From a virus, in the UHGV virus genome UHGV-0037346: a DNA stretch of 30,178 bases. One strand, 5' to 3'. Below the pieces are notes generated by a model, which saw only the letters and a program-made list of their open reading frames with translations, was not told where the DNA came from and searched no databases. This document shows positions 7,006 to 24,349 of the stretch, piece by piece (the stretch's first letter is position 1; each line of letters begins with the position of its first letter). The position numbers and the translations under genes were made by a program.

Positions 7006-7224
7006 GAGCATCCCCCTGAATAAAAACCGGAGATGATGCCAGTTGCCCGTTATCTCTGCATTTTCTTAAACGTTGCTTTAAGATGGGCGTGGTCACCACC
7101 ACATCATCAAAGTGGAACGCGCTGGGAGCGTACCGCTGCAGAATGGGGCATCTCATTAAGCAGTTGATTACTTCCATTGCGAGTGATTCAATAGATATTG
7201 AAAATTCACCCGAAGAGAAAGAAA

Positions 7225-8370
7225 ATGCAAGGAAATAGAATTGACTTTGTCAATACTTTGAGAGGATTTGCAGCATTAGCCGTTGTTATTGCTCACTATA
7301 CTGGTAATTTTTGGTCAATGCGAACAGCAGTAGCAAGTCTTACAAATGCTCCTGAATTACCATCTGAAACATATGCTTGGCCTAGTTATCTTGTATGGCT
7401 CCATGCCTTCCCTTTGTTTAACTGGGGGGCTTTCGGCGTTGCTATATTTTTCATCATTAGCGGGTTTGTCATTCCACTCTCGCTACAAAAAATAACATTT
7501 CACGGTTTTTTATTAAGCAGAATCATTAGAATAATACCAACATATATTATTGGTTTTACTATAACGCTTACAGCCATATTGATAAGCAGTAAATATTTTT
7601 CAGTGGAATGGCCATTTAATAACAAAGAAATATTGATTCACTACATCCCTGGAATCAGAGACTTGTTGTACTCCAGGAGCATTGATGGAATCATTTGGAC
7701 ACTGGAGATAGAAATGAAGTTTTATCTCATTTGCGCTATATTAATAGCAGTATTTCGCAAGCACTCCATAAAAGTTTTCATTACCCCGCTTATTCTTTTT
7801 TTGTTTGCTCTCTATATTAACAAGGTTGCTCCTGAATGGATTAACTCCAATATATCAGCATTCCATCTTGCCATGGCATACATGTTTTTTTCTCAGTATA
7901 TTATTTATATGTTTATCGGAACCATGTTTTATTATATGTATTGTGGTTATATAAATGCCAACAAGGCTTATCTTGGAATCGGCATATTATTTACTTTATT
8001 CTGCATTCTTTGGTGGGCTGGTCCATATTCAGCCAGTATAAATGTCGCCTGGAGCTATGCATTTGCGCTTTTGGTCTTTGCTTTTGCTTATGCTCACCCA
8101 AAATTATTTAAATCCAATAGGTTTTTTGATTTTTTTGCCAACATAAGCTATCCGCTATATATTATCCACGGGGTAGCTGGGTATGTCGCCCTTCGAATTT
8201 TACTTGAAATGGGGTTTAAAGCATGGGTATCTCTCTTAATTGTGACTTTTTCCATTATATTTTCGTCATGGTTAATACACATCTTGATTGAATCCCCTTC
8301 TCAGAGAGCAGGCAAGCGCCTCGTAGCTAAACGAGGTAGGCCATTAAAAAAAACAGCGCAACCAACCTAA
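7225..8370 (+). CDS. Acyltransferase family 3 integral membrane protein (Oac/OafA-like; putative O-antigen acetyltransferase)
   Basis: N-terminal motif NRIDFVNTLRGFAALAVVIAHY typical of acyltransferase_3; ~10 hydrophobic segments; strongly AT-rich and rare-codon-biased compared with flanking phage genes; ATG at 7225 (ORF track start 7198 is TTG). Confidence 0.8.
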   Translation: MQGNRIDFVNTLRGFAALAVVIAHYTGNFWSMRTAVASLTNAPELPSETYAWPSYLVWLHAFPLFNWGAFGVAIFFIISGFVIPLSLQKITFHGFLLSRIIRIIPTYIIGFTITLTAILISSKYFSVEWPFNNKEILIHYIPGIRDLLYSRSIDGIIWTLEIEMKFYLICAILIAVFRKHSIKVFITPLILFLFALYINKVAPEWINSNISAFHLAMAYMFFSQYIIYMFIGTMFYYMYCGYINANKAYLGIGILFTLFCILWWAGPYSASINVAWSYAFALLVFAFAYAHPKLFKSNRFFDFFANISYPLYIIHGVAGYVALRILLEMGFKAWVSLLIVTFSIIFSSWLIHILIESPSQRAGKRLVAKRGRPLKKTAQPT

Positions 8371-8890: not shown

Positions 8891-10404
8891 TTACGCATAC
8901 TCCATAACAATAACCACACCCGCAGAGCCATTACCGCCATTAACGTTTTGATTTCCACTGATTGTTGCCGCGCCATTACCACCCGCACCATACCCACCAG
9001 GGCCAGAAATAAAGCTGCCGCCGCCAAGACCGGAACCTACAGTCCCTCCGACTGCTGTTGGGGTTGCCATCACACCGGGTAGCCCGGCGTACCCGTTGCA
9101 CAAAATGGCACCCACGGTCGAAGTGCCACCCTGACCGCCCATGCCACATGACGCAGAGGAGCCTGACGCAGTGCAGCCGTTGCCTGGCTGGCCTCCACTT
9201 GCTGAGAGATAAGAGCCAAAAGTCGTCGTACCACCCTGCGTGCCATTGGTCATCGTCGAGGCAATACCGCCATTACCACCCGCACCAATCGTGACAAGCA
9301 CGGTTGATATTGCAGACAGGTTAAAGAGACCACGTGCCATTCCGCCGCCACCGCCACCACCACCCGCGGCGTTATAGTTTCCTGTGGAAGTTGCCCATCC
9401 GCCGCCCNNNNNNNNNNGTTATAGTTTACTGTGGAAGTTGCCCATCCGCCGCCCCCACCGCCCCCAATAGCGATGACATCCGCGAACATTGCTCCGGGAG
9501 TTTTGGTGTAAGTGCCAGACGTCTTGATTATCTGCATGCCAATCAGACGACCGACTGCGCCGTTATTTACTAAACCAAGGTATGCGAGAAGACCGGCAAC
9601 ATCCTTTCCACTCAAATGAGTCAGCGTATTGTCCAGCGGTTGTTTACCTGCCAGCGCATTGTTAATGGTGGTGCTGAATTTCGGGTCATTGTTAATGGCT
9701 GCGGCAATTTCTTTCAGTGTGTCCAGCGTGGCAGGCGCACCATTAATCAGAGCGGTAATAGCAGCCTGTACAAACGCAGTGGTCGCAATCCGCGTGGTGT
9801 TATTTCCTGCATCAGGAGTCGGCGCTTTTGGTTCTCCGGTAAATGTCGGATTATGTTTCTGTGCATACTGGGTATGAGGATCCTGTGCGGCAATGTGGTT
9901 TCTCATCTGGTCATCCACATACAGCCTTAATTCCAGGACTTCATCATCCACGTATTTACGGGTCGCCAGTACCACCGACGGGTCGATTTTCAGCGTGATG
10001 GCTTCGGTATTCGTGACAACCAGAATCATGCGGATAGTCTGGGTACGACCACTGCCTTCCTGCAACTGCGGTTTGTACGTTTCCGGGCAGTTCGCCACCG
10101 CAATGAGTACGCCTTCATCATCATAAAGCCCAATCTCACGGATCCAGAATCCGCCCTCGTTCTCAGGGATGATTTGCTCCGCAATAATCTGGCTCTGGTT
10201 GTTCGGGTCAACACTCAGAAGATTCAGCGGCGCGATGCGTTTCTGGTTAATCAGTTTTGTCTGTGCCGGGTCTGGTGTCGGCAAGACACCATTCGCATCA
10301 CCAACGGCCATTTGCGTCAGATTCAGCTTACTGCCGAGCATCGTCGCGTTAGCCAGCCGTGCTGCGCCCTGATTAGTCAGAATGGCGTAGTATTTCACTG
10401 TCAT
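8891..10404 (-). CDS. H: Tail fibre protein (P2 gpH-like), interrupted by assembly gap
   Basis: N-terminal ~150 aa resemble the P2 H N-terminal domain (…MAVGDANG…GGFWIREIGLYDDEGVLIAVAN…YKPQLQEGSGRTQ…); Gly-rich C-terminal part (8891-9340) joins in frame when read through the repeat downstream of the N-run; the reading frame on either side of the 10-N gap differs, so the true length is unknown. Confidence 0.7.
9408..9417. other. Assembly gap (10 N) inside tail fibre gene
   Basis: Run of n characters; flanked by a ~37-bp direct repeat (9371-9407 and 9418-9454, one mismatch). Confidence 0.95.
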
Positions 10405-11917: not shown

Positions 11918-12265
11918 TCAACTCACAGGGATGGTTAACGAAAGTGGCTGGCCGGTGTCGTTGTGCTGGCCGGTTAACGTGACCGTCATTCGCCCGTCAA
12001 AACTGCGCGCCGTGGTGACAGATGACAGGGTGACGCGAGGTTCCCATTTCAGCACCGCCATGTAACAGGCGACCTTAATCTGCAACTCAAGCGCCGGGGT
12101 CTGCGGCTGGTCAATCATTGATGCCAGCAACGAGCCGTAATCACGACGCATCACCCGTGAGCCGACCGGTGTGCGCAGGATATCGCCGATACTCTGGCTG
12201 ATATGCTCAAGGTCAGTGACCGTCAGGCCATCACTGCGATTCATTCCGAGATAACGCGCAGTCAT
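11918..12265 (-). CDS. W: Baseplate protein W
   Basis: 115-aa ORF, same size and position as P2 gpW. Confidence 0.85.
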   Translation of the reverse strand: MTARYLGMNRSDGLTVTDLEHISQSIGDILRTPVGSRVMRRDYGSLLASMIDQPQTPALELQIKVACYMAVLKWEPRVTLSSVTTARSFDGRMTVTLTGQHNDTGQPLSLTIPVS

Positions 12266-12897
12266 AGAGGTCCCCCTGTTGTGCCGCCACTGTCGCCGGG
12301 GTGTTTATGGGTATGCAGTACCTTACCGTTTGATGAGAGTTCACCGCCGGTGTGTTCAATGTTGCCGCGCATCGTCCCGCCCTTCTGCACTTCCAGCGTG
12401 CCGGTAATCAGCCTGTTGGTGCAGACCACCTCCGGTGCGTCCATGGTGATGCGGGTTGATGCTTTCACCATGACCACCGGCACCGTGGCAGTAACAGAAT
12501 CAGAAGCCGTCACGCTGACCGTTTTAATTCCGCTTACCATGAGTGCACTGGTTTCGGGTTCATACTCAATCACCGCCCCGTCAGGGAAACGGATATGCAG
12601 GGCATCCGCCGACGCAGACGGCGCGGGGTTATCACCGGAATAAATCCCCGGCAGAACAAACGCCGTGTCAAGTTCACCGCCCACGGCCAGAATCAGCACC
12701 TGTTCCCCCACGGAAGGTGCCCACCATGTACGCGAACGCCCGGCACGATGGGTCAACCACTGAAGCCAGTCGGTGCACATGCCGCCGGTCTGCACACGGC
12801 AGCGACCGGCGTTAAGGTCGGTTTCGACGATAACGCCGGTGCGAATCATATTGCGCAGTGCGCGCGCGAGTTCCTGAATATTTGCGAGAGTGTTCAT
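12262..12897 (-). CDS. V: Baseplate spike/assembly protein V
   Basis: Start taken at internal Met (MNTLANIQELARALRNM…), giving 211 aa, matching P2 gpV; ORF track start is 12933. Confidence 0.85.
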   Translation of the reverse strand: MNTLANIQELARALRNMIRTGVIVETDLNAGRCRVQTGGMCTDWLQWLTHRAGRSRTWWAPSVGEQVLILAVGGELDTAFVLPGIYSGDNPAPSASADALHIRFPDGAVIEYEPETSALMVSGIKTVSVTASDSVTATVPVVMVKASTRITMDAPEVVCTNRLITGTLEVQKGGTMRGNIEHTGGELSSNGKVLHTHKHPGDSGGTTGGPL

Positions 12898-12974
12898 AAC
12901 GGAAAGGATGCCGCTGGACGATACCAGCAGCAATCATGGAGGGTTCTGTCAGCTGTGACACAACATAACAAATA

Positions 12975-13730
12975 TTAGTTGTAGCACTTCTCTATAATCT
13001 TCATACACTCCTCATGAGCTAAATCATGGCTGTCAAATTCTTTATTAAAAAAGAAGAAAAACGCCTTCTTAACCTGAGGAATTTCAATAAAAATAAATTC
13101 ATCAACCTTATGAAAGAAATGAAAACTCTTGTTTGATGTTTCAAAAACCATCAAAGAATTATGTTTTTTATCCTTCCATTTCGACATCAGATTGCGTCGC
13201 GATTTTCGTATAATCCTGAAGACATCCCCCGGCGTCGTATCGACATTCCCCCAAAACATTGCAACCGGGAAGTTTGCAAGAAACGGGATATAATCACCAC
13301 CTTTATACCTGAGAAAGCGGTTCCGCAAATCCATTAATTGCAACTTAAAACCCATGTATTGCAACCACCATATGATGCAATCATACTCATAATCTGTTAA
13401 CTCCTCCCCTCTCTTTTCCGTAAGAAATTTCTTCAGGTTATACTCAAACACTCCCAGCAAATCAGAATTGCACACTCTGCATGCTGGTACAGTGGCTTTA
13501 ATGTAATGAGTTGACTGATTATTCTTTTTATTAATTAAAGATTTTTCAGCATTTGACTCAAAGGCCCACTGAGGAATAATGTGCTCACGAGTAATATCGT
13601 CAGAACTCCCGCATAACACACATATATCAGCATTATGGTCAGCAATAATACAATCCATAACTTTCTTTTGAGAATGCTTTACTCTTTTTCTCAAAATGGA
13701 AAACTTTTTATCCACAAACACCCGTCTCAT
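12975..13730 (-). CDS. HNH-motif protein, AT-rich cargo at the S-V (P2 orf30) locus
   Basis: 251-aa ORF in clearly AT-rich DNA; motif C-VL-C…REHIIPQW…N…C-RV-CN matches the HNH (beta-beta-alpha-metal) signature; start ATG overlaps S stop (13727-13730). Confidence 0.6.
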   Translation of the reverse strand: MRRVFVDKKFSILRKRVKHSQKKVMDCIIADHNADICVLCGSSDDITREHIIPQWAFESNAEKSLINKKNNQSTHYIKATVPACRVCNSDLLGVFEYNLKKFLTEKRGEELTDYEYDCIIWWLQYMGFKLQLMDLRNRFLRYKGGDYIPFLANFPVAMFWGNVDTTPGDVFRIIRKSRRNLMSKWKDKKHNSLMVFETSNKSFHFFHKVDEFIFIEIPQVKKAFFFFFNKEFDSHDLAHEECMKIIEKCYN

Positions 13731-14185
13731 ATAACATCTTTCGATAGAATCACTAATAACTCCCTTTCTATCAATTGTATAGATTCCTTGTCAAAACCAA
13801 ATAACTCACGAACAGGATATTCCACCACAGCACTATTACGCCCCGGCTTATCCCTAAGCCCTAATTGATGTACTCGCGCAATTCGTTGTACTCCGCTGGC
13901 AAACGCCACCACCGCCGCACTCTCGCTACCTGTTGCTTTCATAAACCGGTTAGTGCGTAATTTCACAAACATTTCCCGCTTTATCCGGCCTTTCTTATTT
14001 CGTACTGGTTGGTTTTTTCTCGGTACATACGGCGTACCATCCGGGGCTTTTTGTAATTTAATTCGCTGCTGCTGGCGCTGGCGCAGCTTCTTCGCAATAT
14101 CTACCGCCAGTCGCCGACGCCCTGACGTTGACAGCGATTCAATCAGTCCGGTCAGACGGTCTTCAAAACACTTAAACTCATTCAT
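13727..14185 (-). CDS. S: Tail completion / virion morphogenesis protein S
   Basis: 152-aa ORF directly after R; size and position match P2 gpS. Confidence 0.78.
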   Translation of the reverse strand: MNEFKCFEDRLTGLIESLSTSGRRRLAVDIAKKLRQRQQQRIKLQKAPDGTPYVPRKNQPVRNKKGRIKREMFVKLRTNRFMKATGSESAAVVAFASGVQRIARVHQLGLRDKPGRNSAVVEYPVRELFGFDKESIQLIERELLVILSKDVI

Positions 14186-23316: not shown

Positions 23317-24246
23317 TCAAACCAGGCTTTTGCCTTGCTTCATTTTTTTAGATGAGTCTAAAAATTTGAAATTATCATTAGATGAAAATATTCTTTCTGC
23401 GGTATGCCGAATGACTGAAGTATTGAAGACCGCAGCCTGCTCCTCATTACAACTGAATACACCCTCATGACCATCAAACTCGCCCGCCAAAAGAAGGTTT
23501 TTTGATACTGGGAACAAAACTAAAGTGTCTTTTACACCAAACCCGGGGGAATAAGGGCCTCGTGCTAATTCAGGATTAGTCCACATTAAGCAAACTGGGT
23601 TATCTGAAGTTATAAATGACCCTTGCCCATCAGATATGGTCATAAGTGACCAGTTGCGTTGATGCAACAACTTGGTGATAACAGGTACACATTTCATTTC
23701 CATATCTATCATGAACTCTCTGATTACATTGATTTCGAAATTATCCCCATCCACAAAATTTTTAATTTTTTCGTAAGCGAGATCATATGGCAAAGACTCA
23801 CCCATTTCTTTCTCATAAGCTAATTTGCAATCGTCCCAACGCTCAGCCGAACTAACTGAGGATTTCATGATAAACTTTGCTATTTGTTTCAATGGAGATG
23901 ATAAATGTTCTCGCTGAGCAGGCGTACGTATTGCCAATAAGGAAATAAACTCCAGAATAACATCTTTGGTTTCGCCTGAAAACTCGCCCCCCTCCTCAAG
24001 TTTTCTTAAATGAGTAGCGACACTGCCTTCAAACTCTGCAAGAGAACTCTCGAGATAGTTTGGGTCAACTCCATCCAATTCTAATCGGTTGAAATCTCTA
24101 ACCCCCCCGACATTGCGAGTATTACTCTCAAAGGTTTTGCGCTCCTTTAAATCTATTACAGTTAATTTTGATTTTTTCCCCCCATTACTTGTAAACCCTT
24201 TCAAATAACATTGGGATAAAAAATGATGATGCCTTGCAACACTCAT
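23317..24246 (-). CDS. Hypothetical protein, AT-rich cargo at the cos-A (tin/old-equivalent) locus; possible DUF4238-like
   Basis: ~310 aa from ATG 24246 (GGAG 7 nt upstream); N-terminal HHHFLSQCYLKGF and later …FITSDNP… motifs; clearly AT-rich; no TM segments seen. Confidence 0.55.
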   Translation of the reverse strand: MSVARHHHFLSQCYLKGFTSNGGKKSKLTVIDLKERKTFESNTRNVGGVRDFNRLELDGVDPNYLESSLAEFEGSVATHLRKLEEGGEFSGETKDVILEFISLLAIRTPAQREHLSSPLKQIAKFIMKSSVSSAERWDDCKLAYEKEMGESLPYDLAYEKIKNFVDGDNFEINVIREFMIDMEMKCVPVITKLLHQRNWSLMTISDGQGSFITSDNPVCLMWTNPELARGPYSPGFGVKDTLVLFPVSKNLLLAGEFDGHEGVFSCNEEQAAVFNTSVIRHTAERIFSSNDNFKFLDSSKKMKQGKSLV

Positions 24247-24349
24247 ACTCAGCTCCGTTATGGCTATAATCGCATAAATAATAAGCACTTATATTGCAAT
24301 CATCTAGTTAAATACACAATATTTATGACTCCGAAATTTCATTAAATCA

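Follow-up and report, generated by a model that had tools for sequence, protein, structure and literature searches.

What is a gene with the signature of an HNH nuclease doing among the tail genes of a temperate phage? The question arises from the UHGV virus genome UHGV-0037346, analysed here as a single stretch of 30,178 nucleotides (the window), which covers the greater part of a P2-like prophage whose late genes are encoded on the minus strand. Between the tail completion gene S and the baseplate spike gene V lies an open reading frame (ORF) in which an initial annotation had noticed an HNH motif. We found that this HNH gene is an optional mobile cassette and not a tail component. Its product is predicted to be a stand-alone, zinc-stabilised HNH DNA endonuclease of the H-N-N type, embedded in a family-specific alpha/beta scaffold with a probable part in DNA recognition or regulation, and the comparative data lean to a homing-like or competition role.

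The HNH motif and its predicted scaffold

The initial annotation had read a signature of CxxC, EHIIP, N and CxxCN from the translated ORF, and had allowed that it could be a chance match, in which case homologues would not conserve the residues. We assessed conservation in an alignment of 34 sequences reaching down to 24% identity and found the motif, consisting of CVLC (37–40), EHIIP (49–53), N70 and CRVCN (84–88) in the window protein, to be nearly or fully invariant. C40, E49, H50, P53, W55, N70, C84, C87, N88, L92, W122 and K129 were identical throughout, and C37 was kept in at least 90% of the homologues, the exception being a truncated sequence. Both CxxC pairs of the zinc-finger HNH subclass are present (C37/C40 and C84/C87). 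The catalytic histidine, which closes the predicted strand 46–50, is preceded by an acidic residue in the invariant pair E49-H50, and the structural asparagine (N70) and the helix asparagine (N88, at the start of helix 85–105) are likewise unchanged. The HNH site is intact and under purifying selection and, judged from these columns, its signature is not a chance match.

In profile comparisons, Pfam HNH_5 (PF14279) matched the window protein at 16.2 bits, below its gathering threshold of 27.5, and gave sub-threshold matches in 29 of the 34 family members (best E = 3.1e-5), and a profile search against PDB sequences aligned both halves of the motif with the Geobacter metallireducens HNH endonuclease 4h9d, at an E value of only 0.22. 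HNH_5 and 4h9d share with the window protein the order CxxC...(D/E)H..P...CxxCN and the H-N-N set, with the motifs in register; the window protein differs from them in its sub-threshold score, a 33-residue insert between the histidine and the second CxxC, an N-terminal helix and a C-terminus of ~150 residues. For this C-terminus Pfam, NCBIfam and PADLOC gave no assignment, in agreement with the initial annotation. PHROG 10503, whose function is unassigned, matched the HNH protein over its full length (E = 1.6e-181), and the only names that public sources give to homologues are 'hypothetical protein' and 'HNH endonuclease'.

AlphaFold2, with a deeper alignment, modelled the HNH protein at a pLDDT of 91.4 and a pTM of 0.90. 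The N-terminal part of the model consists of helix 2–30, strand 46–50 ending in H50, and a loop with two short strands that carries N70; strand 80–84 and then helix 85–105, beginning at C87-N88, complete the beta-beta-alpha unit. Together with the HNH core and the N-terminal helix, the C-terminal region is predicted to form a single globule, not beads on a string, because the pTM is high. It includes a conserved basic stretch (R175, K184, K186 and K189) that is a plausible DNA-binding surface. A search against solved structures found no counterpart to the whole predicted fold and retrieved no HNH enzyme, and there was no solved-structure match for the C-terminal region.

Known nuclease and defence families were also considered as homes for the protein. 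T4 endonuclease VII and HK97 gp74, which serve late functions in their phages, resemble it in having zinc CxxC pairs around the catalytic histidine and an asparagine after the second CxxC, and hhalign placed the CxxC, His and CxxCN elements in register with both, at probabilities of 3.6% and 3.5%, respectively. Membership in the T4 endonuclease VII family was rejected on this value and on the lack of a Pfam Endonuclease_7 match in the window protein. A packaging HNH of the HK97 gp74 type was also rejected, given the hhalign result and terminase genes that lie several genes away from the S–V site; the HNH gene further differs from both in size and in its extra domains. A role as packaging accessory, which the initial annotation had suggested, is disfavoured on the same grounds; its other two candidates, a homing endonuclease and an anti-phage or anti-satellite nuclease, are both plausible. 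PADLOC 2.0 matched no defence model (best E values 0.033 and 0.036) and NCBIfam no model of any kind to the HNH protein, nor did its distant relatives give a match, and assignment to a known defence system was rejected.

The junction between S and V

The ORF described initially was borne out: on the minus strand, it opens with an ATG and has a GC content of 0.36, which forms a sharp trough between 2-kb flanks at 0.55–0.58. The claim that its start overlaps the stop of S was right for this ATG, which forms an ATGA overlap, but less so for the gene. Its homologues, phage R18C and the PGAP annotation share a common start five codons downstream, at MDKKF, a codon that is GTG 13715 in the window, 11 nt past the S stop, and ATG in R18C; both R18C and PGAP annotate a 741-nt gene from it. 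Because all of these begin at MDKKF, the overlap is probably not the true start. Close coupling of the HNH gene to S still holds despite the later start. ORF16 of R18C (QDP43509.1) is the same gene, at 98.4% identity and in the same position, and the R18C genome paper describes it as a 741-bp hypothetical gene replacing Orf30, with no motif or function and only seven database matches (PMC6823313).

The S–V junction is an inter-operon boundary, at which the O operon ends and the pV activator site follows. In the P2 reference annotation, S closes the O operon, with a putative terminator after it, and the sequence continues with Orf30 on the opposite strand, an activator-binding site and the V operon. 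P2 Orf30 covers 786 bp (261 aa; NC_001895 9439-10224) on the strand opposite the late genes; the R18C paper gives P2 ORF30 as 261 bp (PMC6823313), against 786 bp, or 261 aa, on the minus strand in the reference annotation. In L-413C the junction is empty and measures 66 bp. The activator-like dyad of the window (Table 1) aligns with the P2 feature annotated as 'activator binding site' (10239–10266), and the same motif occurs in L-413C and in the compared sequences L008, L011 and L013. A hairpin equivalent to that upstream of V, with substitutions in the stem, is found in L-413C, L007, L008, L011 and L013, while P2 itself is without it and has a different terminator directly after S. The hairpin may be a terminator or attenuator of O-operon read-through that overlaps the pV core.

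Because the dyad and the hairpin both lie downstream of the HNH stop, we read the HNH gene as the last cistron of the O operon, and by this anatomy it would be the terminal cistron of an Ogr-dependent late operon. Upstream of the gene, its own strand showed no sigma-70-like promoter, and the total number of matches in the region was at chance level. The position and orientation of the gene favour its expression together with the late genes, as the initial annotation had proposed. Its description of the gene as embedded in the tail operon holds for the location between S and V, at the site of orf30, but the gene is appended to the end of one late operon. Kinship with P2 orf30, which the shared site had raised, was rejected: BLASTP with P2 Orf30 (NP_046770) gave an E value of 0.47, and Orf30 lies on the opposite strand. 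No Rfam family matched either strand of the region, no direct or inverted repeats that would be scars of transposition or integration flank the HNH gene, and no plasmid in PLSDB matched it.

Table 1 Features of the HNH locus in the window
Feature	Coordinates	Strand	Details
HNH-family gene	12975..13730	minus	ORF of 251 aa from ATG 13730; conserved start probably GTG 13715, giving 246 aa
Zinc-finger HNH (beta-beta-alpha-metal) core, residues ~35-105	13416..13628	minus	Conserved columns, HNH_5, 4h9d alignment, AlphaFold model
Family-specific C-terminal region, residues 106-251	12978..13415	minus	Helices 113-136 and 167-180; basic stretch 175-190; four-strand sheet 193-227; helix 235-250
Gene S (tail completion), last structural cistron of late O operon	13727..14185	minus	Phage_tail_S, E 9.5e-29; P2 annotation
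Gene V (baseplate spike), first gene of V late operon	12262..12897	minus	Phage_base_V, Phage_spike, Apex; true ATG 12897
Activator-like dyad ATGTTGT..ACAG, resembling the pV late-promoter (Ogr/delta) site	12946..12966	minus	Right after HNH stop; putative function
G+C-rich hairpin	12909..12933	minus	11 nt upstream of V start; predicted -16.6 kcal/mol
Mosaic block without nucleotide similarity to P2	12898..13961		3' ~78 codons of S, HNH gene and region upstream of V

Distribution and history of the cassette

The S and V flanks were present in 1583 of 5426 complete E. coli genomes (~30%), and 76 of these 1583 (~5%) carried the cassette. In a spread sample of E. coli junctions, empty sites were the majority, Orf30-type cargo made up about a fifth and other cargo was rarer. 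The HNH gene is found, as homing genes are, between conserved genes in only some close relatives, with the empty junction as the commonest state. A structural or tail protein was rejected, since P2, L-413C and most relatives do without the gene and no structural family matches it; that ~95% of P2-like prophages in E. coli, and the majority of cultured P2-like phages, lack it bears out the earlier statement that it is not a structural gene.

Where the gene occurs in P2-like phages, its placement is uniform. It was co-oriented and directly behind S in all 48 P2-like IMG/VR contigs examined (45–100% identity), with V downstream where the contig extends far enough, and just behind S, again co-oriented, in eight P2-like genome or metagenome contexts. 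The same holds for a 36%-identical relative, P0048, and only three weaker viral matches (37–39% identity) were placed elsewhere. Enterobacterial-type S-HNH-V arrangements at 67% identity also appeared in contigs labelled 'Sporobacter termitidis' metagenome-assembled genome (L020) and 'Chryseobacterium sp. 18061' (L021), both probably misbinned or contaminant.

Every other cargo seen at the junction was antisense, leaving the HNH gene as the sole sense-oriented one. The antisense set comprises Orf30, a RelA_SpoT protein, an AAA ATPase, a 357-aa protein, a Klebsiella 216-aa ORF and an 8xMP protein; in E. coli, cargo antisense to the late genes lies at L099:944-2023, L100:905-2149 and L101:879-1952. 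At E. coli junctions the RelA_SpoT protein is PADLOC candidate PDC-S33 and the AAA ATPase is PDC-S59, and the third of these rarer cargos is the uncharacterised 357-aa protein. Some carriers have an extra 0.9–1.1 kb between the HNH gene and V (L003:6926-7576, L141, L144, L145 and L150), so that the junction can hold two cargos at once; the Klebsiella ORF, which has no family match, is such extra DNA, and the additional junction ORF of the P0048 lineage is antisense too. The S–V junction is a small, little-described cargo hotspot that includes candidate defence genes, and is one of three moron-carrying regions noted in P2-like phages (PMC6823313). Like Orf30 and the morons old, tin and Z/fun, the HNH gene is AT-rich, foreign and dispensable, and it occupies Orf30's own junction; it has no sequence relationship to Orf30 and, unlike it, shares the strand of the late genes and is probably expressed late rather than in the lysogen.

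We also assessed how far the foreign DNA extends. In blastn comparisons with P2, similarity stops at 13961, inside S, and resumes at 12897, the ATG of V; with L-413C the limits are 14028 and 12934. The first ~25 codons of S are P2-like, and gene S is a mosaic. Its C-terminal half is 35% identical to that of P2 S, compared to 52–68% for S of other HNH carriers, and the S proteins of 186-/PSP3-type resemble it at 55–66%; the idea that the imported S allele is a type specific to HNH carriers was rejected on this resemblance. Among complete E. coli genomes the imported S 3' allele was present in 78 and the cassette in 76. Within E. coli the exact S 3' allele is tightly linked to the cassette, which indicates that the cassette entered the E. 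coli P2 lineage together with the S 3' half, through a crossover within S. The cassette lies at the edge of a recombination tract that carries this allele, and phage nuclease genes have been reported to tend to mark the boundaries of genetic exchange (PMC10448857).

In a neighbour-joining tree of 107 family members, the S-linked copies formed one clade, with P0048 at its base. Nested inside this clade is a copy from Erwinia sp. S59 (L006:6001-6744), part of a conjugative element, where TraG_N precedes it and an integrase and a KAP NTPase of 1087 aa follow; the DNA upstream of this copy contains a perfect palindrome, GATGTCAAAATAT..ATATTTTGACATC. Distances were compared among nine P2-like carriers, a small sample of non-independent pairs that can only be suggestive. 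Mean amino-acid identity of the HNH protein among them was 66%, within the 63–73% of R, S, V, W and J. Pairwise HNH identities were uncorrelated with those of R, S and V (ρ = −0.06, −0.29 and −0.06, respectively), compared to ρ = 0.44–0.71 among R, S and V themselves. These values suggest that the history of the HNH gene is decoupled from that of its flanks and, as in homing genes, this is combined with a constant site and orientation, in what is a small and non-independent sample.

Within E. coli, identity was 99.1% in the 3' part of S, 97.9% in the HNH gene and 96.9–97.5% in the flanks, which lends weak support to a recent sweep. Of six further E. coli carriers with an annotation that was examined, two, FDAARGOS_1285 and ES5 (L110:3276-4018 and L111:3276-4005), have a pair of shorter ORFs in place of the HNH gene, which is apparently disrupted. 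The split copies show the gene to be dispensable. A truncated form of 170 aa makes up protein cluster P0037, with 23 member sequences. In every P2-like carrier the GC content of the gene was 0.33–0.37 (0.31–0.41 at third codon positions), and it has remained low though the carriers have diverged as far as their structural genes.

The wider family is bacterial as well as viral. Homologues of the HNH protein fell into 44 clusters at E values up to 1e-3, and a profile search of 1.84 billion representative proteins returned 868 matches at E up to 1e-3, 35 of them below 1e-30. Relatives at 30–42% identity were found in 128 of 185,579 species genomes, in Gammaproteobacteria, Desulfobacterota, many Bacteroidota, Gracilibacteria and a few Firmicutes. 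A larger set of proteins of 300–360 aa, equally without annotation, shares the HNH unit and two helices only. There was no conserved partner gene across 80 genome loci, the next most shared genuine neighbour family occurring in at most five. Immediate neighbours include, by Pfam, Mrr_cat (three times), relaxases, SLFN/AlbA_2 and NACHT-associated nuclease domains (NA-iREase1) and, by PADLOC, Hhe, Mokosh MkoA/C, type IV restriction enzymes, PD-Lambda-3_B, bSEFIR, GajB, LmuA and PDC candidates; one relative adjoins a CBASS operon, two integrases and BrnTA. About 17 of 142 immediate neighbours of bacterial relatives strongly matched defence models, an estimate in which counts may overlap and which describes an association, not a measured enrichment. 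The P2-linked copies, unlike these relatives, sit among tail genes. At 42 of 47 bacterial loci, the HNH gene exceeded its flanks in AT content.

The prophage in the window carries further cargo at other sites. A 323-aa DUF4238 protein (23317-24288, minus strand; PADLOC 'DUF4238-Pers' E = 1.8e-219, Pfam DUF4238 E = 5e-39) occupies an AT-rich island (GC ~0.40) in the old/tin hotspot of P2, and a DUF4238-type protein from P2-like phages has been validated as an anti-T7 system (PMC9122126). In the Z/fun hotspot, another AT-rich island (GC 0.35–0.37) holds a 390-aa Acyl_transf_3 acyltransferase gene (7198-8370, plus strand), opposite in orientation to the late genes and probably a lysogenic-conversion gene for surface modification.

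Possible roles of the nuclease

Our preferred reading, in which we place about as much confidence as doubt, is that the gene encodes a late-expressed, free-standing nuclease, homing-endonuclease-like or used in competition, that would cut related genomes without the cassette or other invaders. Synthesis of the protein would be limited to times of active late transcription and would probably be low, through coupling to S. The targets of the nuclease, met during lytic growth or in mixed infection, would be related genomes or other invading DNA free of the cassette; recombinational repair would then copy the cassette along with the adjacent S 3' allele, and the outcome would be marker exclusion and spread of the cassette. 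We lean to this because the P2-linked copies form one clade with one site and orientation, have a decoupled history, are patchily distributed with empty sites and lie at a recombination boundary with a hitch-hiking allele, and also because they are probably expressed late, have weak signals for translation, are occasionally decayed and stay AT-rich. These traits recall the free-standing HNH homing genes of phages (T4 mob-type, SPO1 I-HmuI and ICP1 IPA-HNH; PMC10448857), which likewise are solitary between conserved essential genes and patchy, keep a fixed site and orientation in divergent genomes, and mark a recombination boundary with a co-transferred flanking allele; they too are AT-rich, occasionally decayed and expressed late, as the HNH gene is presumed to be. 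The HNH protein differs from I-HmuI-type enzymes in its four-cysteine zinc HNH.

Several observations weigh against a homing-like or competition nuclease. Pfam recognised no homing-endonuclease DNA-binding module in the window protein or its family, and the protein is predicted as a compact single globule, whereas free-standing homing genes have a recognisable modular DNA-binding domain. Their homologues also differ in distribution from those of the HNH gene, which are widespread in bacterial chromosomes and defence islands with no conserved insertion site: members of the wider family are solitary genes in varied non-phage neighbourhoods, often beside defence genes and integrases, and these surroundings fit a defence role at least as well as homing. 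The distance correlations come from only nine non-independent taxa, and the divergence of the HNH protein between carriers (mean 66%) equals that of structural genes, so that long residence with a benefit to the phage is equally possible. The excess in uniformity of the cassette over its flanks within E. coli is slight (97.9–99.1% vs. 96.9–97.5%), and nuclease activity, late expression and target are all inferred.

The bacterial neighbourhoods suggest a different account, the main rival and one that we consider unlikely: a prophage anti-phage defence gene, whose product would act in the lysogen as a single-protein nuclease against unrelated phages, directly or by abortive infection, being either sensor-coupled or specific for modified or structured DNA. 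The bacterial relatives are solitary, with no conserved partner, and by Pfam and PADLOC they frequently adjoin defence genes, as in the relative beside CBASS, two integrases and BrnTA; the Erwinia copy lies by an integrase and a KAP NTPase, other S–V cargo of E. coli matches PDC-S33 and PDC-S59, and the same prophage has its DUF4238 defence gene in the old/tin hotspot (PMC9122126), all of which would suit such a role. The P2-like copies themselves do not fit it as readily. They are always sense-oriented and close a late operon that lysogens keep silent, their own strand shows no promoter-like site upstream of them, and the antisense orientation of the other junction cargo is what would be expected of lysogen-expressed genes; moreover, the S-linked copies are a single clade and not repeated independent captures, and the HNH protein matches no PADLOC model. 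The late-operon position would suit a helper in DNA metabolism, a nuclease of structure-specific or non-specific action that would debranch or resolve DNA after replication, break down host DNA or aid packaging, raising burst size in lineages that retain it. The CxxC..(D/E)H..CxxCN order, which recurs in T4 endonuclease VII and terminase-associated HNH proteins, is a likeness at the level of motifs, and a divergence between carriers comparable to that of structural genes suggests long residence. We nevertheless think such a helper quite improbable, since ~95% of close relatives, P2 and L-413C among them, are viable though they lack the gene, some prophages carry pseudogenised copies, terminase genes are not adjacent, the hhalign probabilities for endonuclease VII and HK97 gp74 (3.6% and 3.5%) are low, and relatives occur in non-phage contexts.

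In a further account the protein is not an active nuclease. The HNH-like zinc module could be just a DNA- or protein-binding fold in a regulator or accessory protein, as the HNH_5 score below threshold (16.2 vs. 27.5 bits), structure searches that retrieved no HNH enzyme and a last metal ligand that is asparagine in place of histidine might suggest. We give this very little credence, because the catalytic histidine, following a glutamate, the structural asparagine and the helix asparagine are invariant in 34 sequences and the same H-N-N arrangement aligns with the solved Geobacter endonuclease 4h9d.

P2-like phages are parasitised by P4-like satellites. With a slim chance of being right, the late promoter could itself serve as a sensor, the prophage nuclease staying off until the late genes are trans-activated by the Ogr of a superinfecting P2-like phage or the delta of a P4-like satellite. 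P4 delta is a transcriptional activator homologous to Ogr (PMC7552001), and for this reason the arrival of a P4-like satellite or a P2-like phage would turn on the prophage copy. The induced nuclease would then destroy the DNA of the intruder, or the cell, and would act as an anti-satellite or anti-competitor weapon. A precedent of sorts is ICP1 Odn, a nuclease that a helper phage uses against its satellite (PMC8263062): both are accessory nucleases with homing-endonuclease ancestry or resemblance, but Odn belongs to a different nuclease family and the link of the HNH protein to P4 is hypothetical.

P2-like prophages are a model for the carriage of accessory and defence genes by phages, and the S–V (orf30) junction is barely characterised. 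Work on P2/P4 hotspots centres on old/tin and Z/fun or mentions tail-region hotspots generally (PMC9122126, PMC13586616, bioRxiv 10.1101/2024.10.15.618418); the two defence-hotspot papers (PMC9122126, PMC13586616) do not mention orf30, gpS, gpV or HNH, nor does the hotspot-annotation preprint (bioRxiv 10.1101/2024.10.15.618418) mention HNH. That the gene exists was already known; its assignment to HNH, the reach of its family, the rule for its placement and its clade structure are new. An accessory HNH nuclease is a familiar kind of element in phages, and were this one merely another dispensable passenger the result would be ordinary; its family, scaffold and late-operon wiring are uncharacterised. 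The HNH cargo obeys a rule of its own, being sense-oriented and placed at the end of a late operon, and has a scaffold unlike any solved structure. R18C, as a cultivable carrier, makes the gene directly testable. If its product is homing-like, it would be a clear example of how such an element shapes mosaicism in a temperate phage family, and if it is triggered by Ogr or delta, it would represent a new way for a helper phage to fight its satellites.

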